Source: Vulcanimicrobiota bacterium
GTDB lineage: Bacteria; Vulcanimicrobiota; Vulcanimicrobiia; Eremiobacterales; Eremiobacteraceae
DNA: 64,000 nt
Assembly (NCBI GenBank): GCA_963805945.1
Contig: CAWDVP010000006.1
Span: 256,001 to 320,000 of the forward strand
Direction: 5' to 3'
Below are positions 4,184 through 55,217 of this stretch, in pieces (the first letter of the stretch is position 1; every line of letters begins with the position of its first letter). A program made the position numbers and the translations under genes. Under the pieces are notes generated by a model. That model had not been told where the DNA came from. It did not search any database and saw only the letters and a list, made by a program, of their open reading frames with translations.

Positions 4184-6310
4184 GCCGCCCATGAGGTCGG
4201 CGTCCTTGGCCCAGCGCGGCGGCTTGCCGAAGCCGGTCGCAGACGCGCTCACAAGGCCTCGCGACAGACCGTAGCGCAGCGCGCGCCGCTCTTCCGCCAG
4301 ATAGAGCTGCTTGGCCTCGAAGCGCGCGTAGTACCACGCAAATTTCGCCGTCTGCGACGCACCGGGCGCGACGTTCTCGCGCACGATGAGGCCATAGGTG
4401 CGCGAGAACGCCATGGCGCGGGACACGTAGATGCGCGGGAAGCGCTCGTGTGCGAGGCCGATGACGAACACGTGCGGCCAGCGCTCGCCTTTGGCCGCGC
4501 TGATCGTGTCGCAGGCGATCGCCTCGCGCGTGCGCAGCGCCGGCCGCAGCAACGCCATGTCGTCTTCCAACGCCCTCACGAGCTCGCTCACACCGCGCTG
4601 CGCGCCGCTCGCGCCGGCCGCGGCGAAGGCTTCGAGCACCCGCTGCGCATCATCGAGCAGGCGCGGGCGGCGGTGCTGTGGCGCCGACTCCCAGCGCCGC
4701 ATGAAGCCGCCTGCCCGCGCGAGCCCGGCGATCTGCGCGGCGGGCGAGGCCCCAGCGAACCGCGTGCGCCACGCCTCGAGCTGCGCGCGGAAACGCGCGA
4801 CGGTCTCGCGCGTCGCCTCCGGCAGCCGCTTGTCCACCGTCCCCTCGAGCATGTTGCGCGCGAGCGCGGTGCGTTGACGCCCCTTGCCCGGTCGCTTGCG
4901 TTCGTCGTTGACGCCGACTTCGAGCGCCAGCTGCGTCACCGCAGTCGTATCCTCGCACAGCGCGTAGATGCTCGCGTCGGAGAGACCGAGCAGCGGCGAC
5001 GCGAGCACGCGCAGCATGTGCTCGTGGTCGTAGGGGTCGTCGACGACCGCCGCGAGGGCGAGCCAGTCGGCGATATCGTTGGGCGTCTCGAAGCGCGCCA
5101 GCGGCGCGTCGACCGGCAATCCTCGCCGCTGCGAGCAGATCGGCATACACGGCCGCCGCGTCATCGCTGCGCGTCAGCAGCGCGATGTCGCTCGGCGCCG
5201 CGCCTTGGCGGAGCAGATCCTCGATCGCCGCCCCGAGATGCTCGACCTCTTCCGCCTCGTCAGAGAAGCGCTGCGCACGCGGCTGGGGCGACGCGGGGTT
5301 CGGCGCGAGCTCGATGCGCTGCGTCGGCTCCATCGCGGACAGCACCGAACGGCGGCCATGGAGCCCGTCGACCGCCGCGTCCGGCCAGCCCGCGATGGTG
5401 ATGCCTCGCAGCCCGGCGGCGCTCAGCGCGATGAGCAGATCGCCGACGCCCGCATGCGCGTCCTCCGCGTCGTCCACCATCACGTGCGCGATGCTGCGCG
5501 CGATCGCCCGAGCACGAGCGGCCGTCTTCGACCAGCCAGCGCAGGCACTCATCGACGATATCCTCGTCGCTGGCCAGCGGCGCGCTCCGCGCGACCGTGA
5601 GATACTCGCGATACAGCCGCGCGAGCAGGATGCCGAGATCGCGCTCGGCGCGCTTTTGCGATTGCAACACGTCGGGGCCGGCGCGCAGCGCCTCTCTGCC
5701 GCGTTTGCTGACGCGCCCGAGCACTGCCGGGTCGCGCGCCTTGGCGAGCGCCGCCTCGACCTCGTCGCCGTAGAACGCCTGCAGCCCGGCGACGCTGCCG
5801 CGCTCGAACTCCTCCGGGCTCACCCGCGAGCCGCGCAATTGCGTCATGAGCGCTGCGGCTTCGTCCAAGAACTTGTCCGGCCGGCTCAGGAACGGGATGT
5901 TCAGATCGAGCTCGCCGTCGCCCAACTCGGGCCACGTCAGGTCGAGCAGCCCGGCGGCCGCTTCGCGGACGATCTCGCGGGCGGCGGCAGGACCGCCGTT
6001 GCGCAGGTCCGGACGCACGCCGGCCAATGCATAGTGCGAGCGCAGCAGCTGCAACAAGTGATTCGGCGCAGTGTCGACGCGGATGTTGTCAGGCGCGTCG
6101 AACGACGCAAGGGCGCGGCGAAATGCGCGCACGCCCGACTCGTGCGAGCAGATGACGAGCAGAGAACCCGAGCTTCGCTCGGGCACTACAGGATAACGTG
6201 GCGGCGAGGTGCGCGGCGCGCGCGGCGAGCGCCGCGGTCTTGCCTGAGCCGGGCGGGCCGGTGATCTGCAAGACGCCGTCCTGCGGTGCGGCGACCGCCG
6301 CGTTCAGCAT
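4175..6310 (-). CDS. UvrD/AddA/AdnB-like superfamily 1 helicase, split by three +1 frameshifts (about 6195, 5515, 5120; probable sequencing errors)
   Basis: Walker A GPPGSGKT; motif II-like VMVDDAED; DIALLTRS; TISAAKGERWPHVFV; EERRALRYGLSRG, in four consecutive frames. Confidence 0.8.
6167..6190 (-). repeat. REP-like palindrome, family A, inside the helicase gene
   Basis: Minus strand TGTAGTGCCCGAGCGAAGCTCGGG; encodes VVPERSSG. Confidence 0.85.
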
Positions 6311-6344
6311 CGCGGCTCCCGGTGCCGTATCCGACGGCGCTCGC

Positions 6345-7917
6345 TCAACGCGCAAAGACGCGCTCGCGATCGACAGGCTGTTCGCGGCAGCCGCGCGCGT
6401 ACGCGCAGTACGCGCACGGCGGGTCGACGCCGGCTTCGAAATGGGCGACGCCTTGTTTCGTGAGCATGTCGGCGCGCGCGAGCAGCACGTCGACGGAGGC
6501 CGCCATGTCGGCCGGCGAGGCGACGCCGCGCACCACGCCGCTGCGCGCCGCCCGCTCCACGACCGCCTTGCCCTGGTCGTCGACGATGTCGAGCGCGAGC
6601 ACCCACACCGGATCGCGCGGGTCGCGCAGCGAGATGAGCGCGAGCCGGCCGACGTCGTCGCCCCGCATGCGCCGCACCGTATAGTACAGCGCGAGCTGCC
6701 CCTCCTCGCCGCGGCGGATCTTCCTTATGTACTCGTCGGGATTCTCATCGATGCGGCCGGTCTTGTAATCGTAGATCGTCACCGCACCGCCTGCCGCCGG
6801 CCGGTCGATGCGGTCGATGTAGCCGACGAACTCGTGGCCGCCCATCGACCAGCGCTGCAGTGCTTCGACCGACTCGACCTCCATCGGATGATCGTCCGCC
6901 TCTGCTTTGAGCCAACGCGCGTAGTGAGCGGCGACCGCATGCGCCTTGAGGCGGCTCACCTCGAACTCGAGGCGCGAGGCGAACTCCTCGCGATTGCGCT
7001 CGAAGGCGAAGTCGAGCTGTGAGTGCAGCCGTTCGAGGATCGCGTTGCCGGAATACTCCGCGGGCACGCGGATCTCGCGATGCAGCGCCTCGAGCGCTTC
7101 GTGGAAGACCTTGCCGTAGGTCGCCGCCGCAGAGCCGTCGTCTTCGACCGCATCGCAGAGGTACTCGAAGAACCAGCGGCGCGGGCACTTCACGAAACCG
7201 TTGAGCCGCGAGGCGGAAAACGCCATCGCCGGCGCCACCAGCGGGCGCGGTTCTTCCGGTATCGGCCAGGCCCACGCTTCTTCTACTTCGATTTCTTCGG
7301 TCGCGTCGCTGAAGTGCCGCGCCAAAGCTGCGTGTGCCGGCGCGGTGACCGTGATCTGAAGCGCCGCGCCACGCGGCTCGAGCGCGCCTGCATCCGCGCC
7401 CAGCGCATACGCGAGCGAGCCTGGACCCGCCGGACTGCTCGCCGCTTCCGCGAAGACGATCTCAAGCGTCTCGTCGCCGGCCTCGTCGTCGCCGCACGAC
7501 AGCACGCGCAGGCCGGCCGGCGCTTGCAGCGACTGCGCGACCCAACGCGGCAACACGACGCCGCTTTTCCCGGAGCGCCGAGCGATTTCGAATGCTTCCT
7601 CGAGGGTTGCCGCTTGTCGTTGCGAGGGTTGATCTGAAGATCGATCGGGCCGACCTGAAGGTCGGCCCGCTACATGGGCCGTCGGCGCGAGAACCATGAG
7701 AAGACGGGCGAGAGCGCTGTAAGGCAGCGTTCTCGTCGGCGACCGCAGCCGCCAGAGCGAGCTCGTCGATGTCGGCGCGCGCGCACGCGTCCGCCAACGC
7801 GCAGATCCCGTCGACGAACGCCGCGTCGCTGCGCAGCTCGAGCGGCCACGGCCAGTCGCCGGCGGCAAGGGCGCGCACCAGGGCCGCGCGGCAACCGCCG
7901 CCCGAACTCGAATCCAT
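6345..7917 (-). CDS. PD-(D/E)XK nuclease, AddB/AdnA-like C-terminal domain with four-Cys Fe-S staple; one +1 frameshift at about 7722
   Basis: FSASRLNGFVKCPRRWFF, GKVFHEALE, GYIDRID, IYDYKTG, QLALY, CAYCAYARGC. Confidence 0.85.
7646..7674 (-). repeat. REP-like palindrome, family C, inside the nuclease gene
   Basis: Minus strand TGTAG CGGGCCGACC TTCA GGTCGGCCCG, perfect 10-bp stem; encodes HVAGRPSGRP. Confidence 0.8.
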
Positions 7918-7927
7918 GGTCGCGTGC

Positions 7928-9136: not shown

Positions 9137-9367
9137 GATAGCGGGCGCGATTTCGCCCGGTCGTCCCGACGCGCCTGGTCTGCGTCGCAAGAAACGTGAC
9201 CCCGCGCACTCGCGTCGGGCCGGGGAATCGCGCAGAATCAAAGAACCTGGATCTCAAGAGCGTCGGGGGGCACGCTTCTCATCCGCGCCGCCCGCGTCCC
9301 GTTCTACAGCACGGAAGTGATGCCGGATGCCGCTTTTCTACGGACCAGCCGATAGCAGCATGTAACA

Positions 9368-9952: not shown

Positions 9953-9965
9953 GAGGACACGTATA

Positions 9966-10868: not shown

Positions 10869-10902
10869 GGGCCCTTCCGCTTCGAGCGCGAAGCCCGCGC
10901 TC

Positions 10903-12082: not shown

Positions 12083-12086
12083 GCGT

Positions 12087-16576: not shown

Positions 16577-16600
16577 TGTAGCGCTCGAGCGAAGCTCGGG
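16577..16600 (+). repeat. REP-like palindrome, family A, intergenic upstream of panB
   Basis: TGTAGCGCTCGAGCGAAGCTCGGG. Confidence 0.8.
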
Positions 16601-17467: not shown

Positions 17468-18423
17468 AGATCCTCTTCTGCGACGAGGGCTACTCGGAGG
17501 CGCGCCGGCAGCTGGCTGCGCTCGTGCCTGCGCATGAGATCGCGTGGTGCGCGCGCGACGCGGTCGCCAGGCACCTCGGCGGCGTCGACGTCATCGTGCC
17601 CTACATGGCGGCGATAGACGCGCATATCATCGGGACCGGCTCGTTCGGTCTCGTCCAGCAGTTCGGCGTCGGTTTGGAGAGCGTCGACGTCGAAACCGCG
17701 ACGCGCGCAGGGGTGTGGGTCGCACGCGTGCCGAGCGGGCAGACCGGCAACGCCGAATCGGTGGCCGAGCATGCGGTTCTTCTCGTGCTCATGCTCGCCC
17801 GTCATACCTCTGATGCCCGCAGTGCCCGAGCGAAGCTCGGGGAGCCATCGGGCCTTGCGCTTTTGGGCAAGACGGCGTGCATCGTCGGCGTGGGCGCGGC
17901 CGGCGGCGCGCTCGCGACTCGTCTCACCGCGTTCGGCATGCGCCTCATCGCGGTGCGCAAGAACGCCGCCGGCACACCGCCGCCGGGTGTCCGCTTCGAA
18001 AAGGTCTACCCGCTGGCTCAGCTCTCCGACGCGGTACGCGAGGCGGACTTCGTCGTCATCACAGCGCGCTATGAACCAGACGCGCATCATCTCGTGGATC
18101 GCCGTGTGCTGGAGTCGATGCGCCAAGGCTCGTTCATCGTCAACGTCGCGCGAGGCGGTTTCGTCGACCGCGCGGCGCTCGAGGCAGCGCTGCGCTCCGG
18201 GCGTGTCGCCGGTGCCGGTCTCGATGTTGTCGAAGGCGAACCGCTCGATCCTGGTGATCCGCTCTTGTGTTTGAACGTTATCGTCACGCCGCATATCGCG
18301 GGAGTGACTGACGTGTCCTATGCCGGCATCGCTCGCGTGGTCGGCGAGAACATCCGGCGTTATGAGAGCGGCGAAGCTCCCTTGCACGCGGTCAACAAAC
18401 CGCCCAGACCACGCGGCAGATGA
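17464..18423 (+). CDS. D-isomer-specific 2-hydroxyacid dehydrogenase
   Basis: NAESVAEH, IVGVGAAG, VNVARG, GAGLDV, EP, TPHIAG. Confidence 0.92.
   Translation: MKILFCDEGYSEARRQLAALVPAHEIAWCARDAVARHLGGVDVIVPYMAAIDAHIIGTGSFGLVQQFGVGLESVDVETATRAGVWVARVPSGQTGNAESVAEHAVLLVLMLARHTSDARSARAKLGEPSGLALLGKTACIVGVGAAGGALATRLTAFGMRLIAVRKNAAGTPPPGVRFEKVYPLAQLSDAVREADFVVITARYEPDAHHLVDRRVLESMRQGSFIVNVARGGFVDRAALEAALRSGRVAGAGLDVVEGEPLDPGDPLLCLNVIVTPHIAGVTDVSYAGIARVVGENIRRYESGEAPLHAVNKPPRPRGR
17818..17841 (+). repeat. REP-like palindrome, family A, inside the dehydrogenase gene
   Basis: CGCAGTGCCCGAGCGAAGCTCGGG; encodes RSARAKLG. Confidence 0.75.
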
Positions 18424-22413: not shown

Positions 22414-25400
22414 GTGCCTGACACCCCTATCGTCGTCACCCTTCCTGAAATGGGCGAATCCGTCGCCGAAGGCACCGTCACGAGCTGGCGCAAGCGGCTC
22501 GGCGATGAGGTGAAAAGCGGCGAAGCGCTCGTCGACGTGACCACCGATAAGGTGGACGTCGAGGTGCCGTCGCCCGCGGCCGGCCGCGTTTCGAAGATCC
22601 TCGCGCAAGAGGGCGCCACCGTCAAAGTCGGTGCACCGCTCGCGGAGATCGACCCGTCCGCCAACGGCGCGGCCGAAACCCGACCGCCCAAAGCCGCAGA
22701 GGCGAAATCCAGCGCAGCACCCGCGACGAAGATCGAGCAAGCCCGACCGGCGCAACGCCCGACACAGGAGCCGGCGACGTCTCGCGACGCGTCACCGCTC
22801 GCACGCCGCGCCGCCGCGATCCGCGGCGTCGATCTTGCGAAAGTGGCCGGCAACGGCCCCGGCGCGACGATCCGTCGCGATGACGTGCTGAACGGCGAGG
22901 CGGCGCCCGCCCCCGAGCTTCGCTCGGGCACTACGGACACCGCCCCCGTTGCCAAACCGCCCGCGATCGCGGCGCCGCCCCGCGTGACGCTGCCCGCTGC
23001 GGTTCCCACGGCAGCGACGCCGCAAGCAGTCGAACAAACTCGACCACAACAAACGCCGCCCGACAAACCGGTCGAACAAGTTCGACCGCTACAGCCCTCT
23101 TCAAGAGCCGAGGCCGCGCCGCCGCTTCCCCCGGGCGCGACAGCAACGCCGATCAAAGGCCCTGCCGCGTCGCTCGTCACGTATATGGAAGAGAGCTTGT
23201 CGATCCCCACCGCGACGAGCTTCCGCACGATGTCGGTCGGACACGCTTGAAGTGCGGCGCCGCGATCTCAACGCGGCGCTGCGGACCGCCGGCCGCGACG
23301 AGAAAGTCTCCTTCACCCATCTGATCGGTTTTGCGCTCGCGCAGGCGACGCATCAGGTCCCCGCGATGACGGCGGCGTTTCGGCGCGAAGACGGACAACC
23401 GACGCGGGTGGAGCAGGGCTGCAACCTCGGCCTCGCCGTCGACATGCAGCGTAAAGACGGCAGCCGTTTTCTCGTGGTGCCGGTGATCCGCGACGCGGAC
23501 AAGCTCGATTTCGCGGCGTTCCACAAGACCTACGAATCGCTCGTCGCGCGTGCGCGCGGCAACACGCTCACACCCGCGGATATGGCGGGCGCCAGCATCA
23601 CGCTGACCAATCCGGGCGGCATCGGCACCGTCGCCTCCGTGCCGCGGCTCATGCCGGGCCAAGGCGCGATCATCGCAACCGGCGCGATCGGCTATCCGCC
23701 CGGCTTGGGCTCCGTGCCCGAATCGTCGTTGCGCGCCATGGGCGTCGCCAAAGTCATGACGCTCACCAGCACGTACGACCATCGCGTCATCCAGGGCGCG
23801 CAGTCAGGCGAGTTCTTGCGCCGCATCGAAGAGCTGCTCAACGGCGCGGACGGCTTCTACGACGCGCTCTTCGTCAGCCTGGGCCTGCCCAGGCCGACCG
23901 CCGCGCCGAACCTCGAAACGCGCGCGCCGGGGACCGAGCCCTCGACGGTCAGTCCGGACGTCATCCGTGCCGCCACCGCCGCCGCCTCGCTCATCGCCCG
24001 GTACCGCACGTTCGGCCACACGGCGGCCACGCTCGATCCGCTCGGCGAGCCGCCGGCAGGCGATCCGGCGCTCGATCCGGCCAGCCTCGGTTTGACACCA
24101 CCGCTCATGGAGTCGGTACCCGCGTCGGCGCTGCGCCTCCATCTGCCCGGCAACACGCTGGCGGAGCTGCTGCCGCGCTTGCGTGAGACATATTGCTCGA
24201 CCATCGCCTATCAGATGGAGCACATCTCCAGCCACGAGCAGCGCGGCTGGCTGCGCGAGCAGATCGAGTCAGGCGCGCACACACGGCCGCTCACCCGCGA
24301 GGAAGCGCTCAAGCTGCTCGACGCGCTCACCAGCGTCGAAGTCTTCGAACGCTACTTGCGCAAGTCGTTCCTCGGCCAGAAGACCTTCTCGATCGAGGGT
24401 CTGGACGCGATGATCCCGATGCTCGAAGAGATGGTCGACCTCATGGCGGCCGACGGCATCGGCGAAGTCGATCTCGGCATGGCGCACCGCGGCCGGCTCG
24501 CGGTCATCACGCACGTCGTCGGACGGCCGTTCGAGGAGGCGCTGCGCGAGTTCGAGCTCGCCGACAAGCGCGGCGACACCGACCTGCCGGGCGATGTCAC
24601 GGGCGACGTCAAGTACCATCAGGGCGCCGAAGGCGTGCGCCAGTCGCCAGCGGGCAAGAACGTGCGCGTCGTGCTGGCGCACAACCCTTCGCATCTCGAA
24701 GCGGTGAACTCGGTCGTCGAGGGCCGCACGCGCGCCTCGCAGACCGACCGCTCGCGCAACATCGCGACCCAGGACACGCGCAAAGCCGCCGCCGTGCTGA
24801 TCCATGGCGATGCGGCGTTCCCAGCGCAAGGCAGCGTCGCCGAGGTGCTCAACATGCAGTCGCTGCCCGGCTACACTACCGGCGGCACCGTCCACATCAT
24901 CGCCAACAACCAGATCGGCTTCACCACGACGCCCGGCGAGGGCCGTTCCACGCGTTACGCGAGCGATCTCGCCAAAGGCTTCGACATCCCCATCATCCAT
25001 GTCAACGCGGATGACATCGAAGCGTGCATCGCAGCGGTCCGGCTGTCGGTGGGCTTCCGCCGCACCTTCAAGCGGGATATCCTCATCGACGTGGTCGGCT
25101 ACCGGCGCTCCGGCCACAACGAGACCGACGAGCCCGCGTACACCCAGCCCATCATGTACGAGCGCATCAAGAACCATCCGACCGTGCGCGAGATCTTCGC
25201 GCGGCGTCTGGTGGAGCACGGCACGATCGGCGAGGACGATGTCGCGCGCCTGCTCGAAAACGCGCAGCGGCGTCTCGCCGGCGCGCATGCCGCCGTCAAG
25301 GCGGGCGCCGGTGCAGCCGCTGCGGAGCCTTCGAGCGCCCCGGCGAGCGATGGCGCGGCGGTCGACACGCGCATCTCGGCCGCCACCCTGCGCGCGCTCA

Positions 25401-37507: not shown

Positions 37508-39058
37508 ATGAACGCCATGCCGCATTTCCGTACGTGCGGGCTGCGCGTTGCACCGCTTCTCATCCTCGTCTGCTGCGCTCCGTCATACGGCGCGGCCCTT
37601 CCGAGCGCGCCTCGGCAACCGGTCCCCTCGGTCTTGGCGCGCTTCGCCGGCTTCGAAGGCCGGATCACCTATGCCGGCCATCGCATCGATATCGTCTCCG
37701 CGCCGGAAGTGACCGGCACCGCCATTGTCTCGCGCAACGGCTTTGTCATCGAAGAACGCGGTCCGCGCTACGCTTTGCGCGCCGATGCGAGCGGCGTCGT
37801 CGTGCGTTCGGGCGCGACGGCTGCGCGCGCGGCGGATCCGCTCGACGCGGACGCGTTCGTCTATCCGTGGGCCATCGCGCTCGCCGCGCTCGCGAGCGGC
37901 GATCTTCGCGCCGGCGGGCATGCGGCGTGGCGCACGCCGATGGGCATGACCGTGTATACCGACGCCAGCGGCGCAGAGATCGAAGGTTTCGTCGGGCAAG
38001 CCGGCGCGCGGCTCTCCTTCACATTCGCCGGCTGGAGCGACGTCGCGGGTCTGCCGTTCCCGACGCGCGTCTTGCGCCTGCGCGACGGCGTGAGCGATGC
38101 GGCTTTTCAGATCGACCGCCTCTATGTCGCACGCGCGCCGGGGCCGGGAGACCGGCCGGTCGACGGTGCGCCGGTGGCGGCTGTGACCACCGGTCGAGTG
38201 AATTCGACCGCTCCAGCCATCATGGAAATGCGGCCGGCGCCGCCGTTTCCGTCGCGGCTCGTGCTCACATTCTTCGGCTTGATGCTGCTGGCGGTGGCGA
38301 TGGTCGCGTGGCTGCGGCGCGACGCGTTCACCTCGCGTCTGTGTGCGCGCGCGTCGCCCGACGCGCGAGGATGGCGGACGTCGTCGGCGGCTGCGTATGT
38401 CACGCCCGACGGTATCGTCCGGATCGAGGGCAACGACTACCACGTCGGACCTGAGTTCTTCGCGCGCGCGGTCGAAGTGAGCTTCTCCGCGCTCTTCTTG
38501 CGGGTGTCGGCGCCCGGCCTGTCACGTGCGGTCGTCCTGCCGCGGCGCCTGCCGCGCATCGGCACGCCGCCGCGCCGTCGCCGCGCCGCGTCGGCGGGCT
38601 TCAGCCTCGTCGAGTCGCTCGTCGCCGTGGGCTTCTTGTCCGTCGTGATCGTCGGCGCGATCTATCCGGCGCTCGTCGCGGTTGCGCACGCGGATCTCGT
38701 CGCCGGCCAAAAGCGTGCCGCGATCGCGGCCGCTGCCAACGCCCTCACGGACGAGGAGATGGCGTGCGCCTACGGCACGAGCGCGCCGACCGGCGTCACC
38801 ACCACCACGGTCGACGGCATGACGGTGACGGTCAGCGTCACAAGCTCATCCGTGGCCGGCGCGCGCGATATCCGCGTCACGGTCGCGAATGCGTCGGGCC
38901 GGACGCTCGCGGCGCTGGCCACCACCGTGGGTCCGCCGGTGCCGCCGCCCGGTTCGAGCGGCGCGGCGACGCCTCCACCTACGGCCGCGCCGACCGCGGC
39001 GCCGACGACCGCACCCGGACCTTCGGCGACCCCACCGTCTTCGTTCGGCGGCCGCTGA
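37508..39058 (+). CDS. Membrane protein with an internal prepilin-type N-methylation motif
   Basis: Signal-like N-terminus, TM segment, then RRRRAASAG|FSLVESLVAV and a pilin-like C-terminus with Pro/Thr tail. Confidence 0.75.
   Translation: MNAMPHFRTCGLRVAPLLILVCCAPSYGAALPSAPRQPVPSVLARFAGFEGRITYAGHRIDIVSAPEVTGTAIVSRNGFVIEERGPRYALRADASGVVVRSGATAARAADPLDADAFVYPWAIALAALASGDLRAGGHAAWRTPMGMTVYTDASGAEIEGFVGQAGARLSFTFAGWSDVAGLPFPTRVLRLRDGVSDAAFQIDRLYVARAPGPGDRPVDGAPVAAVTTGRVNSTAPAIMEMRPAPPFPSRLVLTFFGLMLLAVAMVAWLRRDAFTSRLCARASPDARGWRTSSAAAYVTPDGIVRIEGNDYHVGPEFFARAVEVSFSALFLRVSAPGLSRAVVLPRRLPRIGTPPRRRRAASAGFSLVESLVAVGFLSVVIVGAIYPALVAVAHADLVAGQKRAAIAAAANALTDEEMACAYGTSAPTGVTTTTVDGMTVTVSVTSSSVAGARDIRVTVANASGRTLAALATTVGPPVPPPGSSGAATPPPTAAPTAAPTTAPGPSATPPSSFGGR
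38191..38215 (-). repeat. REP-like palindrome, family B, intragenic
   Basis: CGGTCGAGTGAATTCGACCGCTCCA; encodes GRVNSTAP. Confidence 0.85.
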
Positions 39059-39741: not shown

Positions 39742-40277
39742 GATCCCGTATGGAGCGGTCGAATCTATTCGACCGCGGGATGACGCTGATCGAGTTGCTC
39801 ATCGTCGTCGCCATCCTCGCGATCGCGTGCGCGCTCATCTTCCTCTCGCCCGTGCGCGCGTATCTGCACGCTCGCGCCGCAGCCGACGCAGCGCAGACTT
39901 TTGCGCAGGACGTGGCGCTGCTGGAACGCGTGGCGCAGAACGGCGGCGCCAACGACGGCGCCACGCTGCAGATCGTCTCGACCAGTCCGCTCGTCTACGA
40001 ATGCTACTACGGGCGCCCGAACGCGATCGATCCGAACTCCGCGCTCGGCGCGTTGATCGTCCGCCGTAGCTACGATGACGTGACGCTGTCCGGCGGACCC
40101 ATCGACGCCACCACGCCGTTGCTGTTCGCGAGCAACGGAAGCGCGCAGTACGTCGCGGCCGGAGTCTGGGCGGACCAGCATCAGACGATCGAGATGACGC
40201 TCGCGCCGTCCGGAGACGAAGAACGCTCTTCCGCCATCGACCTGGACCTTTTCACCGGCGGGGTCTCACTGCGGTAG
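39738..40277 (+). CDS. Prepilin-type N-terminal cleavage/methylation protein (FimT/GspH-like)
   Basis: RG|MTLIELLIVVAILAI; ATGA overlap. Confidence 0.88.
   Translation: MRSRMERSNLFDRGMTLIELLIVVAILAIACALIFLSPVRAYLHARAAADAAQTFAQDVALLERVAQNGGANDGATLQIVSTSPLVYECYYGRPNAIDPNSALGALIVRRSYDDVTLSGGPIDATTPLLFASNGSAQYVAAGVWADQHQTIEMTLAPSGDEERSSAIDLDLFTGGVSLR
39751..39775 (+). repeat. REP-like palindrome, family B, encoding the prepilin leader
   Basis: TGGAGCGGTCGAATCTATTCGACCG; encodes MERSNLFDR. Confidence 0.85.
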
Positions 40278-40289
40278 CGCGACGACCTT

Positions 40290-43200
40290 CTAGCGGAAAT
40301 CACGCGTGGTCAACCCGTCCGTGAGGCGATCCAGGTCGAGCTTCCAGAAACGGCGAGCCAGCACGTTGATGTGGCCCTCATCCTTCTGGATGACGCCCTC
40401 CACGATGACCGCCGGCTCGTCGCGCGCGATCGGACGGTACTTCTGATAGATGTCCGGCCGGATGATCACGTTGACGAGCCCGGTCTCGTCCTCGAGCGTG
40501 GCGAAGACGAAACCTTTGGCGGTGCCCGGACGCTGACGCGTCGTGACCAGGCCTGCGACTTTCATGACCAGGCGATTGGGAAGACGCTCGAGGTCGGCGG
40601 CGCTGTAGATGCGCCGCGCGGTGAGCTGCTCGCGATAGAACTGCATCGCGTGGTAGGTGGGCGACAGGCCTAAGCCCCACAGGTCCGCACCGGCTTCTTC
40701 CACTTGATGCATGCGCGGCAGCGCCACCGGCGGTTCGTCGAGCGTCATGCCCCGTTCGAGCGCGCCGACGCGGGGCAAGATCGCGAGCCGCTGCACCTCC
40801 CACAGCGCCTGCCGGCGCGACAGCCCGAAGCACGCGAACGCGTCCACCGCGGCCAGCGACTCCAAGATCTCTTTGGAGAGCTGTGTCCTCAAGACGAAGT
40901 CGCGCAGATCCATGTACGGCCCCTTCTCTCGCTCAGCATTCAACATCGCTTTGTGCTTTTCGCCGATACCGCGCACTTGACTGAGCCCGATACGAATGGC
41001 ATAGCCGCGCGTCTCGAGCGGAAGCACGCGGCTCTGCGAAGCCGGGGCCTCTGAGGAGGCGAGAGCCGACGAAGGAGCCGCGGAGTCAAAATCTCCCTTA
41101 GCTCCGCGAGCGTGCCCCGGCGGCAGAGCCGCGTGCGCGCTCGCGACGGGCAGCCTCTCCGACGTGCATTCGTAGCGCGAGACGTTGACGTCCGGCGCCA
41201 GCACGGTGACCTTATGCCGGCGCGCATCCGCGATCAAAGATTCAGGCGAATAGAACCCCATCGGCTGCGCGTTGAGCAGCGACGCGTAGAACTCCGGCGC
41301 GTAACGCAGCTTGAGATATCCGGAGATGTAGACGATGAGCGCGAACGACGCGGCGTGCGATTCGGGGAAACCGAAGTCGGCGAACGCGCTGAGCATCTGG
41401 AAGAGCCGCTCGGCGACCTCGCGTGTGATGCCGTTGCGCGCCATGCCTTCGAGCAAGCGCGCGTGCAGGCGCTCCATCTTCTCGCGCGAGCGCTTGTGCC
41501 CCATCGCGCGGCGCAGCTCGTCCGCCTGGCCGGCCGTGAAGCCCGCGGTCTCGACGGCCATGCGCATGCCTTGTTCCTGGAAGAGCGGCACGCCCAAGGT
41601 GCGCTCGAGCACCGGCTTGAGCTTCGGATGCGGATAGGTCACCGGCTCGAGGCCTTTGCGCCGGCGGATGTAGGGATGCACCATATCGCCCTGGATGGGG
41701 CCGGGCCGGATGATCGCCACCTCGACGACGATGTCGTAGAAGCAGCGCGGCCGCAGGCGCGGCAGCGTCGCCATCTGCGCGCGCGACTCCACTTGGAACA
41801 GCCCGACCGTGTCCGCGGCGCACAGCATGTCGTAGACGCCCGGATCGTCGCACGCGCGCAGGTCCGCCAGATCGAGCGTCTCTCCGCGCACGCGCGCGAT
41901 CTCCTTGATCGCGAGCTCGATGGCGTCGAGCATCCCGAGCCCGAGCAGGTCGATCTTGATGAGCCCGAGCGCGGCGCAATCATCCTTATCCCAGCACAGG
42001 ATGGTGCGGTCGGGCATAGCCGCTTTCTCCAGCGGCGCCACTTCGATGAGCGGCGAGCGCGTGATCACCATGCCGCCGACGTGCTGGCTCAGGTGGCGCG
42101 GGAAGCTGTCGATGCGGCGGCACAGCTCGTAGAGCCGCTCCGCGGTGTCGCCGGCCAGATCCACGTGCAGCGCCGGCGGCAGCGCGGCGACCGCGCCCGC
42201 CACCTCAGCCGCCGACAGCGCCGGCGGCTCGCCGTGCGCGTCCAAGGACGGCAGGTGGGATGCGTTCCCCGAGCTTCGCTCGGGCACCACAGGCTCAGGC
42301 ACCACAGACCCGCGCGCGACGTCCGAGAGAGCGCGCGCCGCGCTGTAGCCGTCGAGCGACTTCGCGAGCGCGTCCACCTGATCGAGCGAGAGACCGATCG
42401 CCTTGCCGATATCGCGCACCGCGGAGCGCGCGCGGTAGCTGATGACCTCCGCGACCATCGCGCTATGCTCGCGGCCATAACGTTGATAGACGTATTGGAT
42501 GATCTGCTCGCGCTTCTCGCCCGAGGGGCAATCGAGGTCGATGTCGGGCAGTTCGGCGCGCTCTTCCGACAAGAAGCGCTCGAAGAGCAGCTTCAAGCCG
42601 ACCGGGTCCACGCTCGTGATGTTGAGCGCGTAGCAGACGGCCGAGTTGGCGGCCGACCCGCGGCCTTGCACGAAGATACCGCGCTCCATCGCGAAACGCA
42701 CGATATCCCAGACGATGAGGAAGTAACCGGCCAGATCTAGCTTCTCGATCACCGCGAGCTCATGCGCGATTTGCTTGCTCACCTCGGGCGTCACCGGACG
42801 GTAGCGCCGCCGCACGCCTTCTTGCACGAGCGCGTAGAGATACGAAAAGGCGGTCTCACCGCTCGGCAGCGGAAAATCGGGAAACTCGTTGCGTAGGCGC
42901 TCCAAGCGGAACGAACAGCGCTGCGCGATGGCGGCGCTGGCCGCGATCGCGCGCGGATGCTCGGGGAAGAGCCGCAGCATCGCCTGCGCCGAGCGCAAGG
43001 CGTATTCGCCGTTGGGCCGCAGCCGCGCGCCCGCGTCGTCAAGCGTGGTCTTGAGCCGGATGCAGGCGAGCACGTCGGCGAGCTCGCGGTGCTCCGGCAG
43101 CGCGTAGTGCACGCCGCCGGTGGCGACCAGTCCGAGCTCGAGGTTCTGCGCCACCGCCGCGAGCGCGCGGATGCGCGGGCCGTCGTCGGGCAGCAGATGC

Positions 43201-43691
43201 CGCTGCAGCTCGATCCAGAAATTGCCCCAGCCGAAGATGTCGCGGAACGCGGCGGCGCGTTCGCATGCGCCGCGGACGTCATCGCGCGCGAGCGCCTGCG
43301 GGACCGCGCCATGCTCGCAGCCGGACAGCGCGATGAGCCCCTTGGCGTAGCGCGAGAGGTTGTAGTAGGACGTGCGCGGCGCGCCGCGTTCGTTGTCGAG
43401 ATGGGCGCGGCTGAGCAGCCGCGAGAGATTGCCGTACCCCTCCTTCGTCTCGGCGAGCACGACGAGATGGCTGTCGTCCTCGAGCGTCAGCTCGGCGCCG
43501 ATGACGGCGGGCAGCTGCGCTTCACGCGCGGCTTGGGCGAAGCGCACGGCGCCGTAGAGGCCGTCGCGATCGGTGATCGCGCAGCCGGCCAGGCCGAGCT
43601 GCGCTGCGCGCTCGACCAGCTCTTCGGGGTGCGAGCCGCCCTCGAGCAGGGTGAAATTGGAATGACAGTGGAGCTCGGCGTACGGCAGCAT
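40290..43691 (-). CDS. dnaE2: Error-prone DNA polymerase DnaE2 (ImuC)
   Basis: YAELHCHSNF PHP domain, QGRGSAANS, PDIDLD, HLSQHVGG, GFPESH, RQRPGTAKG, C-terminal RDFR. Confidence 0.97.
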   Translation of the reverse strand: MLPYAELHCHSNFTLLEGGSHPEELVERAAQLGLAGCAITDRDGLYGAVRFAQAAREAQLPAVIGAELTLEDDSHLVVLAETKEGYGNLSRLLSRAHLDNERGAPRTSYYNLSRYAKGLIALSGCEHGAVPQALARDDVRGACERAAAFRDIFGWGNFWIELQRHLLPDDGPRIRALAAVAQNLELGLVATGGVHYALPEHRELADVLACIRLKTTLDDAGARLRPNGEYALRSAQAMLRLFPEHPRAIAASAAIAQRCSFRLERLRNEFPDFPLPSGETAFSYLYALVQEGVRRRYRPVTPEVSKQIAHELAVIEKLDLAGYFLIVWDIVRFAMERGIFVQGRGSAANSAVCYALNITSVDPVGLKLLFERFLSEERAELPDIDLDCPSGEKREQIIQYVYQRYGREHSAMVAEVISYRARSAVRDIGKAIGLSLDQVDALAKSLDGYSAARALSDVARGSVVPEPVVPERSSGNASHLPSLDAHGEPPALSAAEVAGAVAALPPALHVDLAGDTAERLYELCRRIDSFPRHLSQHVGGMVITRSPLIEVAPLEKAAMPDRTILCWDKDDCAALGLIKIDLLGLGMLDAIELAIKEIARVRGETLDLADLRACDDPGVYDMLCAADTVGLFQVESRAQMATLPRLRPRCFYDIVVEVAIIRPGPIQGDMVHPYIRRRKGLEPVTYPHPKLKPVLERTLGVPLFQEQGMRMAVETAGFTAGQADELRRAMGHKRSREKMERLHARLLEGMARNGITREVAERLFQMLSAFADFGFPESHAASFALIVYISGYLKLRYAPEFYASLLNAQPMGFYSPESLIADARRHKVTVLAPDVNVSRYECTSERLPVASAHAALPPGHARGAKGDFDSAAPSSALASSEAPASQSRVLPLETRGYAIRIGLSQVRGIGEKHKAMLNAEREKGPYMDLRDFVLRTQLSKEILESLAAVDAFACFGLSRRQALWEVQRLAILPRVGALERGMTLDEPPVALPRMHQVEEAGADLWGLGLSPTYHAMQFYREQLTARRIYSAADLERLPNRLVMKVAGLVTTRQRPGTAKGFVFATLEDETGLVNVIIRPDIYQKYRPIARDEPAVIVEGVIQKDEGHINVLARRFWKLDLDRLTDGLTTRDFR
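42268..42306 (-). repeat. REP-like palindrome, family A, plus a partial duplicate, inside dnaE2
   Basis: CCCGAGCTTCGCTCGGGCACCACA followed by CTCAGGCACCACA; encodes VVPEPVVPERSSG. Confidence 0.85.
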
Positions 43692-43692
43692 G

Positions 43693-45246
43693 TCAATCGA
43701 ACACGCCTTGCACGTACCAGCCGCCGTCGCGGCGGTCGCAGAACACGAGCAGCAGCGCGCCGGTGCTATCGACGAGCTGGTAGTAGTCGCGCTCGATCGG
43801 ACGCTCCCACCAGCTCTCGCTCAAGCGGAACGGGCCGGCGCGTGCGGCTGCAAGCGGCGGCGCGCTGATCGGCGCGGGCGGATCGACCAGGCGCAGCGCC
43901 GGCGCCCACGCGCCGTGCGAGGTCAACGTCGTCATACCTGACACATATGGAGCGGTCGAGTTCACTCGACCGTTTAGGGAGGTCGAATGTATTCGACCGT
44001 TGAGAGTGCTCCGGCCGTTCGGCTTTCGCGCCCGCGCGCCGTCGCGCGGCGAATCTAGGATGTCGCGCGGCGATTCGATCGGCGTCGCCCGCTGCATGCG
44101 CTCGGGCAGACGGGAACGCGACGGCGTAGATGCCAGCAACACCACCTCCTCACGCTGCAGCGCGGCCTGCAGCCGCGCGAGCGTCGCCGCCAACGCGGCA
44201 CGGCGCGATGCCGCCGTGCCGTCGAACAGCGAGAGCTGCGGCAGCGCCTGGCCGCACGGCGTGACGCGTGCCGTCACCGCCGCCACCGATTCCAGCATCT
44301 CGCGCGACTCGAGCGCGATGCGCGCGAGATGGAACATCGTCTCCGCATTGGCGCTCGGCTCGGCGAGCAGCACCGGCACGGTCGTCGACTCGGTGGAGAA
44401 CTCCAGCTCGATGTCGAGCCGATCGCACGTCTGCGCGCCGCCCGCCAGCCGCGCGGTGACGGCCGCGATGCAGCCGCGCGCGGCGACCAGCACCGGCTCG
44501 AGCCGGTCCACGGCGCCGTCGAATGCGAAGCGTTCCTGGAAGACGGCGGTCTCGTGCCGGGGCTGCAGACGCTCGTCGTCGTCGCCGCGGGCGAGCCGCT
44601 GATAGCGGCGCGCTCGCTCGCCGAAACGCAGGGCGAGCGGCCCGGTCGGCAACGCGGCGAGCTGCCCGAGCGTGCGCAAGCCGAGCAGATCGAGGCGATC
44701 GGCATCGCCAGGCGCGAGCGCAAGCAATGCGATGGGCAGCGGCGCGAGAAACGCCGTGCTGCCGCCCGGCGGCACGATGCTCACCCCGGCGCCCGCGACA
44801 AGCGCTGCGCACCGCGCGGTGAACTTATCGTCGGCGATGCCGGCGGCGCACGAAAAGCCGAGCGCGCTGACGAGCGAGAGCGCGGCGCCGATCGCGCCGG
44901 CTTCGCCCGACGGCAGCGAGGCCGCATCGAAGTAGCAGACGCCCGGCGCCGCGCCCTCCACGAGCGGACCGCACGTCTCGAGCGCCTCGAGCAGCTCGCG
45001 CGTGGCAGCAAGCTCCGCGGCGACATCGCGTGCGATGACCACCAGGCCCGGGCAGGCGGCACGCGCCTGCTTGGGCGTCATGCCGGCCACGACGCTGCCG
45101 GCGTTGCGGCTCGCACACGCAATCTCGCGCCGCGACTCGCCTTGCGCGATGGCGATCGGCCGGCCGCGTAAGGACGGCTTCGCGCGCACGCAGACCTCGA
45201 CCGAGAATTGCGGCAGGACCAAGCATGCGATGCGGCTGGCGATCAA
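43693..45246 (-). CDS. imuB: Inactive Y-family polymerase ImuB
   Basis: RIACLVLPQF, GMTPKQARAACP, LGLRTLGQL, QLSLF clamp motif, GPFRLSESWW..RDYY..WYVQGVFD; TTG start overlaps the imuA TGA. Confidence 0.92.
   Translation of the reverse strand: MIASRIACLVLPQFSVEVCVRAKPSLRGRPIAIAQGESRREIACASRNAGSVVAGMTPKQARAACPGLVVIARDVAAELAATRELLEALETCGPLVEGAAPGVCYFDAASLPSGEAGAIGAALSLVSALGFSCAAGIADDKFTARCAALVAGAGVSIVPPGGSTAFLAPLPIALLALAPGDADRLDLLGLRTLGQLAALPTGPLALRFGERARRYQRLARGDDDERLQPRHETAVFQERFAFDGAVDRLEPVLVAARGCIAAVTARLAGGAQTCDRLDIELEFSTESTTVPVLLAEPSANAETMFHLARIALESREMLESVAAVTARVTPCGQALPQLSLFDGTAASRRAALAATLARLQAALQREEVVLLASTPSRSRLPERMQRATPIESPRDILDSPRDGARARKPNGRSTLNGRIHSTSLNGRVNSTAPYVSGMTTLTSHGAWAPALRLVDPPAPISAPPLAAARAGPFRLSESWWERPIERDYYQLVDSTGALLLVFCDRRDGGWYVQGVFD
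43948..43999 (+). repeat. Two tandem REP-like palindromes, family B, inside imuB
   Basis: TGGAGCGGTCGAGTTCACTCGACCG and GGTCGAATGTATTCGACCG, 27-nt period; encode LNGRIHSTS LNGRVNSTAP. Confidence 0.85.
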
Positions 45247-45995
45247 TGCAGCGCTCTTGGCGGTCGAATAAATTCGACCGCTCCATGGACCGCGTCGACC
45301 GCTCCATAGGTGTCGTGGGTCAGCGCCACGCGGACGCTGCGGCCCGGTGCGATGGCGCGCGATTTGGCCACGTCGACCGACGTGACGCACCCGGCCAGGC
45401 GCCCGGCGCCATCGCCACCCTCTTCCCACAGCGGCGCGAGGCCGTGCGCGTGCAACCGCAGCGATGCGAACGACGCCACCGCCTGCACGTCGCCGTTCGA
45501 GACGATCACAAGCGCCGTGCCCGTCTTCTCCGCTTGCGCCGCGAGCCGCGCGCAGTGATGGGTCTGCAACGCAGCGGGCGAGCCGCTGCAATCGAGCACG
45601 ACGACCGCGCATGCGCCGCCGCGCACCAACGCATCCGCGGCGCGGCGCGCTGCGGCCGCAGCGCGCGGACGCACCACCACGAGCCGGCGCAGATCGACGC
45701 CCGCGGCTTCCGCCACCGGCGCGAAGAACGTCCTTTGAGGATCGATATACGCGCCGATGCCGCCGCCCTGCGTGCAGGCCGCGAGGGCGGCCAGCGCGAG
45801 CGTCGTCTTGCCCGAGGAAGGGGCGCCGAAGATCTCGGTCAGGCGGCCGATGGGTATGCCGCTCGGCCCTAAGAGATCGTCCAAAACGGCGATGCCGCTC
45901 GGCGTGCCGGCCCGCGCAGGAGCGATGGCGTGGGGTACGGCTCCCTGCCAACGGCGCTCGAGCGCAGCCCGTAACTGCACGATAGAGGACGACAT
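45243..45995 (-). CDS. imuA: RecA-like ImuA protein
   Basis: SGIAVLDDLLG..GIPIGRLTEIFGAPSSGKTT, AYIDP, VVVLD; first gene of the imuB-dnaE2 cassette. Confidence 0.88.
   Translation of the reverse strand: MSSSIVQLRAALERRWQGAVPHAIAPARAGTPSGIAVLDDLLGPSGIPIGRLTEIFGAPSSGKTTLALAALAACTQGGGIGAYIDPQRTFFAPVAEAAGVDLRRLVVVRPRAAAAARRAADALVRGGACAVVVLDCSGSPAALQTHHCARLAAQAEKTGTALVIVSNGDVQAVASFASLRLHAHGLAPLWEEGGDGAGRLAGCVTSVDVAKSRAIAPGRSVRVALTHDTYGAVDAVHGAVEFIRPPRALH
45261..45307 (-). repeat. REP-like palindrome, family B, plus a partial duplicate, in the imuA 3' end
   Basis: CGGTCGAATAAATTCGACCGCTCCAT, then TCGACCGCTCCAT 21 nt later. Confidence 0.85.
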
Positions 45996-46003
45996 GGGAG
46001 ACT

Positions 46004-46032: not shown

Positions 46033-46076
46033 GACTCTCGTAAGGTTGCCCCAAAGCAGGCACGAAAGCCCCGGAG

Positions 46077-47714
46077 ATGAGCGATTTCGCCGCCACAGCC
46101 GAGGCTATCATACGCGCTCGGCTCAAAGACGACCCCATCGACGCCACCCGGGCCGGCATCCACGACTACGACGGCGAGTTGCCCGATATCACGGCCGAGG
46201 GCGTCGCCCAGTCGCATGAAGACATCAAAGCGCACCTGGCGAGTCTCGCCCGCTTCGCGCCGGGCGATCTCACGCCCGCCGAGCGCATCGACCATCGCCT
46301 GCTCGGCTCGACGCTTGACGTCGAATCGCGCGAACAGACCGAGCTGCAGCCGGAGAAACACGATCCGTCGCTGTACCCGTCGATCGCCGCCGAAGGCGTC
46401 TACTCCCTCCTGGCGCGCGACTTCGCGCCGCTGGCGGAGCGGCTGCCGTCGATCGTGTCGCGCTTGCGCGGCATCCCCGAGATGCTGGCGGCCGGCGCGC
46501 GCAATCTCGTCCGTTCGCCGCGCATCTGGACGGAGATCGCGCTCGAAGAGACCGCCGGCGTCGTCGAATTCTTCGAGCAGACGGTAGCGCCGCTCGTCGA
46601 CGATCGAAGCGGTCGAATGAATTCGACCGCTCCAAAGGCCTTGCACGACGCCATCGCCGCTCTGCACGAGTACGGACGTTTCCTCAAGGAGCAGCAGCTG
46701 CGCCGCGACGGCATGCCGTTCGCCATCGGGCGCGACTTCTTCGACTACAAGCTCAAGCACGAGCATTTCTTGCCGTACACCGCGGAGACGCTGCTCGCAT
46801 TCGGTGAAGGCGCAGTGCGCGAGACGGAGCTCCGTCTCCAAGAGGTCGCTGCGCTCATCGAGCCTGATGCGCAATGGCCGGCGCTCGTCGAACGGCTGCG
46901 CGAGGACCATCCGGCGGAGGGCGATCTGCTATCCGAATATCGGCGTGGACTCGCGGAGGCGCGCCGCTTCGTCGTCAAGCGGGACCTGGTGAGCATTCCC
47001 GCCGGCGAATCGCTGGAGATCGTCGAGACGCCCATCTTCGTGCGTCCGACGATACCGTATGCGGCCTACGTACAGCCCGGCGTCTTCGATGCGCGCCAAC
47101 AGGGGCTGTATTACGTCACGCCGGTGAGCGAGCACGGCGACGCGACCGAGCGCCACGAGCAGCTGCAGGGCCACAACCGCTTCGGCATGCTGCTCACCAA
47201 CGTGCATGAAGGCTACCCCGGACACCACCTGCAGCTCGTCATCGCCAATCGTGCGCCGTCGCTCGTGCGCCGTTTCCACGACAGCACCGTCTTCTGCGAG
47301 GGCTGGGCGCTGTATTGCGAACAGCTCGTGCTCGACGAAGGCATGAGCGACGACCCGCGCAGCAGGCTCTTCCAGCTCAAGGACCAGCTCTGGCGGGCGT
47401 GCCGCGTGGTCATCGACGTCAAGCTGCAGACCGCTCAGATGACGTTCGACGAAGCCGTCTCGATGCTCGTCGACGTGGCCAAGCTGGAGCATGTCAACGC
47501 GGTGGGCGAGGTGCGCCGCTACACGCAGTCGGCCACGCAGCCGATGTCGTACCTGGTGGGCAAGCAGCAGATCATGGAACTGCGGAACAGCGAGCGTCGG
47601 CGGCTCGGGGCGGGCTTCGGGCTGCGCGATTTCCACGACCGTCTCTTGGCGCAGGGTTCGCTGCCCGTGGCCCTGATCGAAGAGTCTTTCGCGCCGATGG
47701 CGCAAGGGAGATAG
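46077..47714 (+). CDS. DUF885 family protein
   Basis: HEGYPGHHLQ, FCEGWALYCE, LWRACRVVID, EVRRY..QPMSYLVG, FHDRLL. Confidence 0.93.
   Translation: MSDFAATAEAIIRARLKDDPIDATRAGIHDYDGELPDITAEGVAQSHEDIKAHLASLARFAPGDLTPAERIDHRLLGSTLDVESREQTELQPEKHDPSLYPSIAAEGVYSLLARDFAPLAERLPSIVSRLRGIPEMLAAGARNLVRSPRIWTEIALEETAGVVEFFEQTVAPLVDDRSGRMNSTAPKALHDAIAALHEYGRFLKEQQLRRDGMPFAIGRDFFDYKLKHEHFLPYTAETLLAFGEGAVRETELRLQEVAALIEPDAQWPALVERLREDHPAEGDLLSEYRRGLAEARRFVVKRDLVSIPAGESLEIVETPIFVRPTIPYAAYVQPGVFDARQQGLYYVTPVSEHGDATERHEQLQGHNRFGMLLTNVHEGYPGHHLQLVIANRAPSLVRRFHDSTVFCEGWALYCEQLVLDEGMSDDPRSRLFQLKDQLWRACRVVIDVKLQTAQMTFDEAVSMLVDVAKLEHVNAVGEVRRYTQSATQPMSYLVGKQQIMELRNSERRRLGAGFGLRDFHDRLLAQGSLPVALIEESFAPMAQGR
46608..46634 (-). 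repeat. REP-like palindrome, family B, inside the DUF885 gene
   Basis: AGCGGTCGAATGAATTCGACCGCTCCA; encodes SGRMNSTAP. Confidence 0.85.
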
Positions 47715-47717
47715 CAC

Positions 47718-48200: not shown

Positions 48201-48212
48201 AACTGCATCCAC

Positions 48213-48982: not shown

Positions 48983-48988
48983 ACTATA

Positions 48989-50745: not shown

Positions 50746-50753
50746 CGCGCCCG

Positions 50754-51428: not shown

Positions 51429-51498
51429 CTCCGTTGTTTCGCGGCGCGGCGCGGCAAACGCTTTTGCGCGCGGAGGGCATCTGCCGCCGTATCCGCAA

Positions 51499-53376: not shown

Positions 53377-53411
53377 CCGACGAGCGCTCAAGGGGGAAGC
53401 CGAAACCGACG

Positions 53412-53437
53412 GGAACCTACTATTCCGGGTTTTCGTT
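53412..53437 (+). promoter_or_regulatory. Candidate ECF-sigma promoter
   Basis: GGAAC-N17-CGTT about 55 nt upstream of ATG 53491. Confidence 0.45.
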
Positions 53438-53490
53438 AGCCCGGTAATACGTGCATTTGCACGCGTCCACGCTCGTTGGGGGAGACGCTG

Positions 53491-54309: not shown

Positions 54310-54316
54310 GTCGAGC

Positions 54317-54733
54317 ATGAGGCGCATCGCGTCGATACTGCTTGGGGGCTTGCTTGCGAGCGTGCTCGCGGCGAGCCCCGCAACCGCGATCACCTATACG
54401 TGGAGTCTTGGCAAGCCTTCACAGATCGTCGCGTACCAGGTCGGCAACGGCGTCATCACCGTCGCCACTGCCGTGGTCCTGTGCCAGCCGATCAAACTCG
54501 CCCTGGACACTACGAAGCCGTTCGTGTACGACTTCAAGATCGGAACGGCGAAAGGCGTGTATTGCTCGTGGCCAGCGCTGAGCCCGCCTCCGTACACCGC
54601 CCCGATCGCCGCGTACTATCAGGTGGGCTCTCCCTCGAGCGTCACGGTGCACACAAAGACCGGCGTGATGACGATTTCCGTCCAACCCGCTCCGCCCTCG
54701 AATCCCGCGATCGGCCACTTACCGTTCCACTAG
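54317..54733 (+). CDS. Hypothetical secreted protein
   Basis: MRRIASILLGGLLASVLAASPATA signal peptide; two Cys. Confidence 0.75.
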   Translation: MRRIASILLGGLLASVLAASPATAITYTWSLGKPSQIVAYQVGNGVITVATAVVLCQPIKLALDTTKPFVYDFKIGTAKGVYCSWPALSPPPYTAPIAAYYQVGSPSSVTVHTKTGVMTISVQPAPPSNPAIGHLPFH

Positions 54734-55188
54734 GACGTGGCGTCGTCCAAGCGTTTTTGAGCAGCGGCCGCATCTAACGCGGCGTTCACGAGCTTGTCTG
54801 CCCGGCCGTTCTGCTCGCGCCGGATGTGCGTCACGTGCGCTTCCTCGAAGCGCCGCAGCAGGTGTTTGGCGCGCGCATGCAGCGGGATGATCTTCTCGTC
54901 CTTGACGCGGTACTCGCCGCCGATCTGCTTGACGATCAGCTCGCTGTCCATGCAGATGTCCGCGCGCGCATAGCCGGCGGCCAGCGCTCGATCGAGCGCG
55001 AGCAGCAGCGCTCGATACTCGGCGACGTTGTTGGTCGCGACGCCGAGATATTCGCTGATCTCGTCGACGACGGCGCCATCGTCCGCGAGGATGACCGCGC
55101 CCGCGGCCGCCGGGCCTGGATTGCCGCGCGCGCCGCCATCGGTGTAGATCACGCAATGGGCGCCATGTCCCAGCTTCGCGTCGCTCAT
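54730..55188 (-). CDS. rnhA: Ribonuclease HI
   Basis: YTDGGARGNPG, TNNVAEY, MDSELIVKQ, REQNGRADKLVN. Confidence 0.95.
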   Translation of the reverse strand: MSDAKLGHGAHCVIYTDGGARGNPGPAAAGAVILADDGAVVDEISEYLGVATNNVAEYRALLLALDRALAAGYARADICMDSELIVKQIGGEYRVKDEKIIPLHARAKHLLRRFEEAHVTHIRREQNGRADKLVNAALDAAAAQKRLDDATS

Positions 55189-55217
55189 AGTCGGGCGGAC
55201 CTTTAGGGCCGCACGAC
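55187..55217 (+). repeat. Degenerate REP-like palindrome, family C, at the rnhA start
   Basis: ATAGT CGGGCGGACC TTTA GGGCCGCACG; one compensatory C-G to G-C swap relative to the 7646 copy, two mismatches. Confidence 0.5.

Follow-up and report, generated by a model that had tools for sequence, protein, structure and literature searches.

How do short palindromic repeats of a class named for lying between genes come to reside inside them, in frame, and what spreads them? The question is raised by a 64,000-nucleotide stretch of an Eremiobacteraceae genome (contig CAWDVP010000006.1; G000:C6:256001-320000 in our notation, hereafter the window), in which 15 hairpins with an adjoining tetranucleotide fall into three families, A, B and C. 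The source assembly, G000, comprises 2.3 Mb in 8 contigs and is 82% complete. Pfam was used to check host proteins in the window and NCBIfam to check another 27 host or window proteins; orthologues were taken from five relatives in the genus. The initial annotation placed 13 of the elements within 10 coding sequences; the domain matches and orthologue alignments uphold this count, and the other two, at 16577 and 55187, are intergenic. We propose that A, B and C are probably families of repetitive extragenic palindromic (REP) sequences spread by REP-associated tyrosine transposases (RAYTs), the products inside genes being filtered by selection, with C a recent family and A and B older ones whose in-gene copies persist.

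All 15 elements were recovered to within 1-2 bases of where they had first been placed. A, B and C each have the form of GTAG-type REPs, a palindrome of 20-40 nt with an unpaired 5' tetranucleotide tag. A and C carry the tag GTAG; the tag of B is mostly GGAG in G000 and in the relatives G005 and G006, and mostly GTAG in the relative G002. Upon folding, four consensus-like hairpins gave z-scores of -4.1 to -5.3, with 0/200 shuffles equally stable, and the degenerate hairpin at 55187 gave -3.6 (2/200). Stem covariation is seen as 4 perfectly paired stem variants for B and 18 for C. The genome-wide scan that the annotation had suggested, made with fixed patterns, returned 80 copies of A, 164 of B and 159 of C, and these 403 copies stand against 2 pattern matches in total in an order-5 Markov sequence of the same length. 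Since the patterns match 11 of the 15 window elements, missing those at 7646, 23029, 43981 and 55187, the census is conservative. The consensus originally given for C has exactly one occurrence in the genome and had to be replaced; the actual C consensus is GTAGGGGYCGAHCTTYAGDTCGRCCC. The A and B elements are 23-24 nt long, and both sampled RAYT-linked families 26 nt. An inverted neighbour of the same family within 130 nt was found for 0/80 copies of A, 18/164 of B and 43/159 of C, and in none of the three do inverted doublets make up most copies, as they do in the REPIN organisation. Of the C-C pairs in G000, 22/27 are inverted, all in one arrangement. All 10 adjacent A-B pairs stand head to tail; a composite A-B element was considered and rejected, A-B neighbours being observed 10 times against 11.5 expected.

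No RAYT gene lies in the window, as had been remarked, and the search located one elsewhere. G000 contains a single Y1 transposase gene, on contig C3 (119708-120025), and tblastn gives no other significant location in the assembly. Its product scores above the cut-off of the NCBIfam model REP_Tyr_transpos (NF047646; 100 vs 80 bits) and matches the E. coli TnpA-REP structure 4ER8, the alignment taking in the HUH motif and the C-terminal Tyr region. Two plus two inverted copies of family C flank the gene, the arrangement known as a REPtron. RAYT genes are present in 17/31 other genomes of the family, a tally that includes the unpublished G016. The flanks of 8/27 loci were unparsed; most of the parsed loci are flanked by tagged hairpins of their own. 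In G009, G018 and G024 the hairpins flanking the RAYT are B-like and carry the GGAG tag; in G011 the flanking hairpin has the head of family A. C has its own RAYT in G000, and for A and B look-alike REPtrons were found in other genera only. Because the RAYT is flanked by C and those of relatives by B-like hairpins, we regard A, B and C as REPs, in agreement with the original identification. Some RAYTs of other genera (L133, L138, L139) are accompanied by arrays of their own hairpin, up to about a dozen, with a stem that differs per genus.

Within the genus, C was found in 0/6 other genomes, being confined to G000, B in 5/6 and A in 2/6. In a rooted tree of DUF885 proteins, G000 branches as sister to the five further members of the genus that were included (support 99/95); together with the presence of B in 5/6 genomes, this suggests that B probably dates from the ancestor of the genus. 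RAYT was not found in G001-G006 with Pfam, NCBIfam or the G000 protein as query (one of the searches covering five of the six), and despite this there are 68 exact copies of B in G002 and 60 in G006. On contig 1 of G002, one direction is shared by 38/40 exact B copies past 1.26 Mb and the opposite one by 12/18 of those before it, and the exact B copies listed for G005:C3 all share one direction (17/17). These long one-directional stretches suggest a replication-strand bias; those of G002 would fit a strand-specific enzyme. When REP orientation in G000 was compared with local GC skew there was no signal, the skew itself being too weak.

Genes in G000 were called with a hexamer codon model trained here, giving 2253 genes, a coding share of 82% overall and 78-88% per contig. 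Copies inside predicted open reading frames (ORFs) number 31/80 for A, 57/164 for B and 3/159 for C (Fisher p of 5e-14 and 4e-16 for A and B against C), leaving 49/80, 107/164 and 156/159 outside, some of which may lie in genes obscured by frameshifts. With a stricter classifier the counts are 21/80, 45/164 and 2/159 overall, and 10/21, 22/53 and 0/31 on the best-assembled contig. Since the in-gene shares fall below the 82% coding share, A and B also prefer intergenic space. The window's 13/15 is therefore not typical of the genome, where about one third of A and B copies and 2% of C copies are in genes, and C, first presented as an in-gene family, is scarcely one. With the same stricter classifier, samples from the relatives place B in genes in 4/30 cases in G006 (drawn from the 60 exact copies) and 7/30 in G002 (from the 68), and A in 3/14 in G002 (from 22); two RAYT-linked families, the C-like family of G021 and the GGAG family of genus g4, gave 0/9 and 0/30. 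In these samples RAYT-linked families are thus extragenic, and families without a RAYT partly intragenic. The GGAG tag was considered as a stop-removing adaptation for entry into genes and dismissed: the GTAG-tagged B of G002 occurs in genes and the g4 GGAG family does not, so the tag does not decide gene entry. Stop codons were likewise rejected as the whole cause of the exclusion of C, whose open-frame share is 0.56 vs 0.82-0.87, for a gap that is roughly 18-fold. Hosts of in-gene copies genome-wide include CarB, ValRS, the replicative DnaE, the RpoC tail, FtsK, MutS2, HutI and PknB.

Comparison with REP-free orthologues revealed net gains in DnaE2 (+7 codons), DUF885 (+5), a helicase (+9), the FAD subunit of a xanthine dehydrogenase-like enzyme (+4), ValRS (+3) and an EfbA-like protein (+19 for two copies), a net loss of 2 codons in a 2-hydroxyacid dehydrogenase and no change in a membrane protein. 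As the net change is only -2 to about +9 codons per copy, host codons must often have been replaced, and the rewriting commonly extends past the hairpin into the flanks, which in DnaE2 and the ImuA-like gene include partial repeats of the element. The initial annotation had envisaged in-frame insertion that adds peptide. Residence in frame, peptides absent from orthologues and a preference for linkers, loops and tails were all found; pure addition was not, since several sites show replacement (-6 nt in the 2-hydroxyacid dehydrogenase, 0 in the membrane protein). On alignment, no orthologue carried the same peptide in non-palindromic codons without an indel.

The copies are unevenly distributed among the five open frames, as 14, 11, 4, 1 and 1 for A (p=1e-4) and 25, 14, 10, 4 and 3 for B (p=1e-5). 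Conservation had been thought to act at the DNA level only; with 25/31 copies of A in two frames and B preferring one, this is not supported, and selection on the peptide is the simplest reading of the uneven frames. Hairpins are preserved no differently inside and outside genes (p 0.49 and 0.38).

A further line of evidence comes from the relatives, in which the same protein loops hold different REPs. The 99 genes with at least 4 orthologues contain 47 internal sites marked by an indel or a REP, 14 of them (13 distinct loops) occupied in G000. A REP is present in G002, G005 or G006 at 7/14 of these and at 2/33 of the others (Fisher p 0.0014), and G001 and G003, which have few copies, have none at any of these sites. 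The p-value overstates the case, because the regions were chosen for their in-gene copies in G000, one site is counted twice, some sites are defined by REPs, wide linkers attract matches and the genomes are kin. The seven co-occupied sites differ in family in ImuB, DUF885, MutS2 and HutI, where one lineage has A and another has B, in orientation in CarB and ValRS, and in frame in the linker of 2-oxoglutarate dehydrogenase. The ValRS loop has copies in two orientations, those of G000 and G002 sharing a frame and each bearing the majority tag of its own lineage. The CarB loop contains B in three frames and two orientations, and a homologue 90% alike over the region has the main B variant where G000 has another stem variant. 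A search of 113 CarB homologues (117,558 residues) gave five matches to the peptide pattern, 5/5 in this one loop, and homologue P0011 has an inverted doublet there. Loop length, parsed in 34/113 homologues, ranges from 26 to 70 residues and is variable also where REPs are lacking, so the CarB loop is tolerant anyway. In ribosomal protein L4 (orthologues of L178:3943-4584), G005 and G006 have a B-like copy in a loop and G000 has none.

Taken as a sequence of events, the proposal is that RAYT (TnpA-REP) HUH tyrosine transposases would spread A, B and C by way of folded single-stranded DNA. Copies would land in genes and between them, often at the expense of neighbouring host codons, with repair trimming or rewriting the flanks, and selection would keep those products that preserve the frame in tolerant loops, linkers and tails and encode linker-like peptides, presumably neutral ones. 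C would have arrived recently together with its RAYT and still be almost wholly extragenic; A and B, for which no RAYT was found, would be older, their in-gene copies having accumulated and persisted, and the same few tolerant loops would have been occupied again and again. Several results weigh against this proposal. The many exact copies of B in genomes where RAYT was not found are a poor fit to long decay after loss of the enzyme, and B shows no clear strand bias in G000. Frame use is not significantly correlated with a disorder scale (rho 0.28, p 0.43) or with a codon score (rho 0.40, p 0.25). Inside genes, departures from consensus lean mildly towards synonymous changes in A (25:19 vs 30:40); in B they do not (20:71 vs 36:115). 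The gene calls come from our own codon model on an assembly that bears frameshifts, a model also applied to other genera, and with the nearest assembled relatives only ~70-83% alike to G000 the insertion boundaries are unreadable for any copy.

The turnover within loops could come about through repeated insertion into a few tolerant loops, through ancestral doublets with differential loss, or through overwriting in place. In the last case an in-gene REP would itself be the preferred target, and the RAYT would swap family, orientation or sub-variant within the loop, rewriting the flanking codons. The co-occupancy with its changes of family, orientation or frame speaks for it, as do the lineage-specific tag in ValRS, the different stem variant in CarB and the head-to-tail order of the A-B pairs; such a process has been proposed for extragenic REPINs (bioRxiv 10.1101/2024.10.14.618302). 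Besides the choice of regions and the counting already described, the A-like call in DUF885 is based on a 13-nt core, and an ancestral doublet like that of P0011 can yield opposite orientations through differential loss. C is also rarely found at REP sites of relatives (0 of about 22, 2 of about 11, and 3/18 in mapped samples), and the notion that C has overwritten older extragenic sites was dropped, as this was not evident in the mapped samples. We rate overwriting as possible but distinctly the less likely account. Still more tentatively, surface loops of essential proteins (CarB, ValRS, MutS2, HutI and ImuB) might be landing pads where the resident REP is re-cut and overwritten, so that the loop peptide is rewritten in blocks, and this might be continuing for A and B with no cognate RAYT found. 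An unlikely alternative to our proposal is that A and B are now spread or homogenised without a dedicated RAYT, by the C-type RAYT in trans, another HUH enzyme or hairpin recombination, with the looser route or the 23-24-nt length admitting them to genes. It would account for the failure to find a cognate RAYT in four genomes rich in B, of which three are 97-98% complete, for the many exact copies and the lineage-wide difference in tag, and for the 26-nt length and extragenic position of the sampled RAYT-linked families; yet recent loss of a RAYT, documented for Pseudomonas chlororaphis, explains the same data, G000 is only 82% complete, and the net indels do not equal the length of the element.

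It is most improbable that the in-gene copies are artefacts of ORF calling or marks of dead genes in an error-prone assembly. Three window genes, those for the helicase, a nuclease and 2-oxoglutarate dehydrogenase, do contain frameshifts (5132, 6193, about 7710 and 23238, in conserved genes), and the coding share per contig is as modest as given above. Independent contigs ~92-93% alike have one base fewer at 5132, 6193 and 23238, none of those listed covering the frameshift near 7710; these three thus appear to be errors of assembly, and G000 probably contains erroneous indels. Trigger factor and ClpP form a single 661-aa ORF (G000:C6:111099-113084; L175:9100-11085) joined via a copy of family A; since ClpP has its own ribosome-binding-like site, this fusion may be another one-base error. 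However, CarB, ValRS and the replicative DnaE are full-length and above NCBIfam cut-offs, the flanks align in frame to orthologues, the frameshifts at 5132, 6193 and 23238 are absent from the independent contigs, and the same peptides recur in other assemblies, which largely refutes the artefact for internal sites.

REPs inside genes are known as such, and the initial annotation's view that precedents are rare is not supported. Intragenic GTAG REPs have been catalogued for many species, among them the families GTAG-17, -18 and -19 of Opitutus terrae (Di Nocera, De Gregorio & Rocco 2013, PMC3733652), for which supplement 3 has at least 70 intragenic rows in three families, including DnaE2 and linkers of 2-oxoacid dehydrogenase E2. 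The likeness extends to three tagged families per genome, dozens of copies in frame, recurrent peptides in both orientations, the same DnaE2 and E2-linker hosts and GTGG-type variants of the tag. The sequences and the phylum differ, the copies here are mostly single whereas more than half of those in O. terrae are dimers or groups, and here one family is kept out of genes and the same loops change family or orientation across the genus. The paper also notes that recB has a REP at roughly one and the same place in two Xanthomonas species. Rickettsia palindromic elements (RPE) are similarly translated in frame inside conserved proteins; according to the same source, RPE-1 is longer, and RPE-4/6 are CGTC-type and without a linked transposase (PMC3733652).

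The G000 locus resembles the REPtrons of E. coli (4ER8) and of group 3 systems in its Y1 HUH gene and in inverted cognate hairpins with a 5' tetranucleotide, and those of group 3 in short perfect stems and 3-4-nt loops (PMC8266576). In that account TnpA-REP attaches to the single strand in its folded form, cleavage takes place nearby at a position that the tag helps to select, and the ends are then joined by strand transfer. Unlike those REPtrons, only C has a RAYT in the assembly, and the mostly GGAG tag of B has 0 occurrences in the available text of that paper. REPIN turnover in P. chlororaphis, where one site has different repeat types per lineage and overwriting upon RAYT exchange is considered possible (bioRxiv 10.1101/2024.10.14.618302), is comparable, although it concerns extragenic doublets within one species and not, as here, mostly singlets in coding sequence across a genus. 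Decay of REPINs after loss of the RAYT is described in bioRxiv 10.1101/2021.07.10.451892. We found no report of REPs ('repetitive extragenic palindromic') for Eremiobacterota and no account of REP family changes within one protein loop, most subscription journals being outside the search. Turnover in the same loop across related species is the less ordinary part. In-gene copies bear on how RAYTs bring REPs to new sites in vivo, since the reading frame and the conserved sequence on both sides register each event. With about 90 in-gene copies in each genome, three families that probably differ in age, and reused loops, the genus is convenient for studying insertion boundaries and overwriting versus repeated insertion, and it adds the soil phylum Eremiobacterota to the lineages where repeats supply new peptide sequence.

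In the window, family A occurs at 6167..6189 (- strand) just after the Walker A motif of the UvrD-like helicase, where 5/5 orthologues have a 28-nt gap. An independent contig ~93% alike and without one base at 6193 makes this a +27-nt in-frame insert common to that relative. An ORF start inside this copy was rejected as the start of the gene, since the helicase begins upstream, with the Walker A motif in another frame. A variant of C with a 10-bp stem (7646..7673, -) occupies a variable linker of a PD-(D/E)XK nuclease, both flanks aligning to orthologues in one frame. Further copies of A are at 16578..16600 (+), intergenic and upstream of panB, and at 17819..17841 (+), where about 10 codons of the 2-hydroxyacid dehydrogenase are replaced (net -6 nt). 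The fused 2-oxoglutarate dehydrogenase has three elements in its lipoyl/E3-binding linker: A at 22912..22934 (-), a degenerate, tagless B at 23029..23046 (-) missed by the census pattern, and a GTAG-tagged B at 23069..23092 (-), which gives the same peptide in G002, while G005 and G006 have B in another frame. Family B is also found at 38191..38214 (-), without net length change, in the linker of an unnamed membrane protein with no Pfam match and orthologues 53-56% alike. At 39752..39775 (+) it makes up the greater part of a prepilin-type leader, immediately ahead of the G|M site (PF07963, residues 13-34), and is absent in 5 orthologues.

REPs occur in all three genes of an imuA-imuB-dnaE2-like cassette (40290-45995). 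In DnaE2 a GTGG-tagged A (42268..42290, -) adds a net +21 nt, and its head is partly repeated; in the ImuB-like gene, B (43949..43972, +) and a second, degenerate B (43981..44000, +) lie in the C-terminal linker, where G002 has family A; and in the RecA-like (ImuA-like) gene B forms part of the C-terminal tail (45261..45284, -). DNA-acting proteins make up 5/10 window hosts, which echoes a remark in PMC3733652. Family B in DUF885 (46610..46633, -) adds a net +15 nt, and in G005 and G006 this loop contains an A-like insert of +21 nt; an AlphaFold model of this protein, made without an alignment, had a mean confidence (pLDDT) of 38 and was not used. The degenerate C-like element (55187..55215, +) abuts the start of an RNase H-like gene and is otherwise intergenic. 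An Rfam scan of the window matched no family, and a predicted ORF at 16028-16567 contains long asparagine-rich runs.

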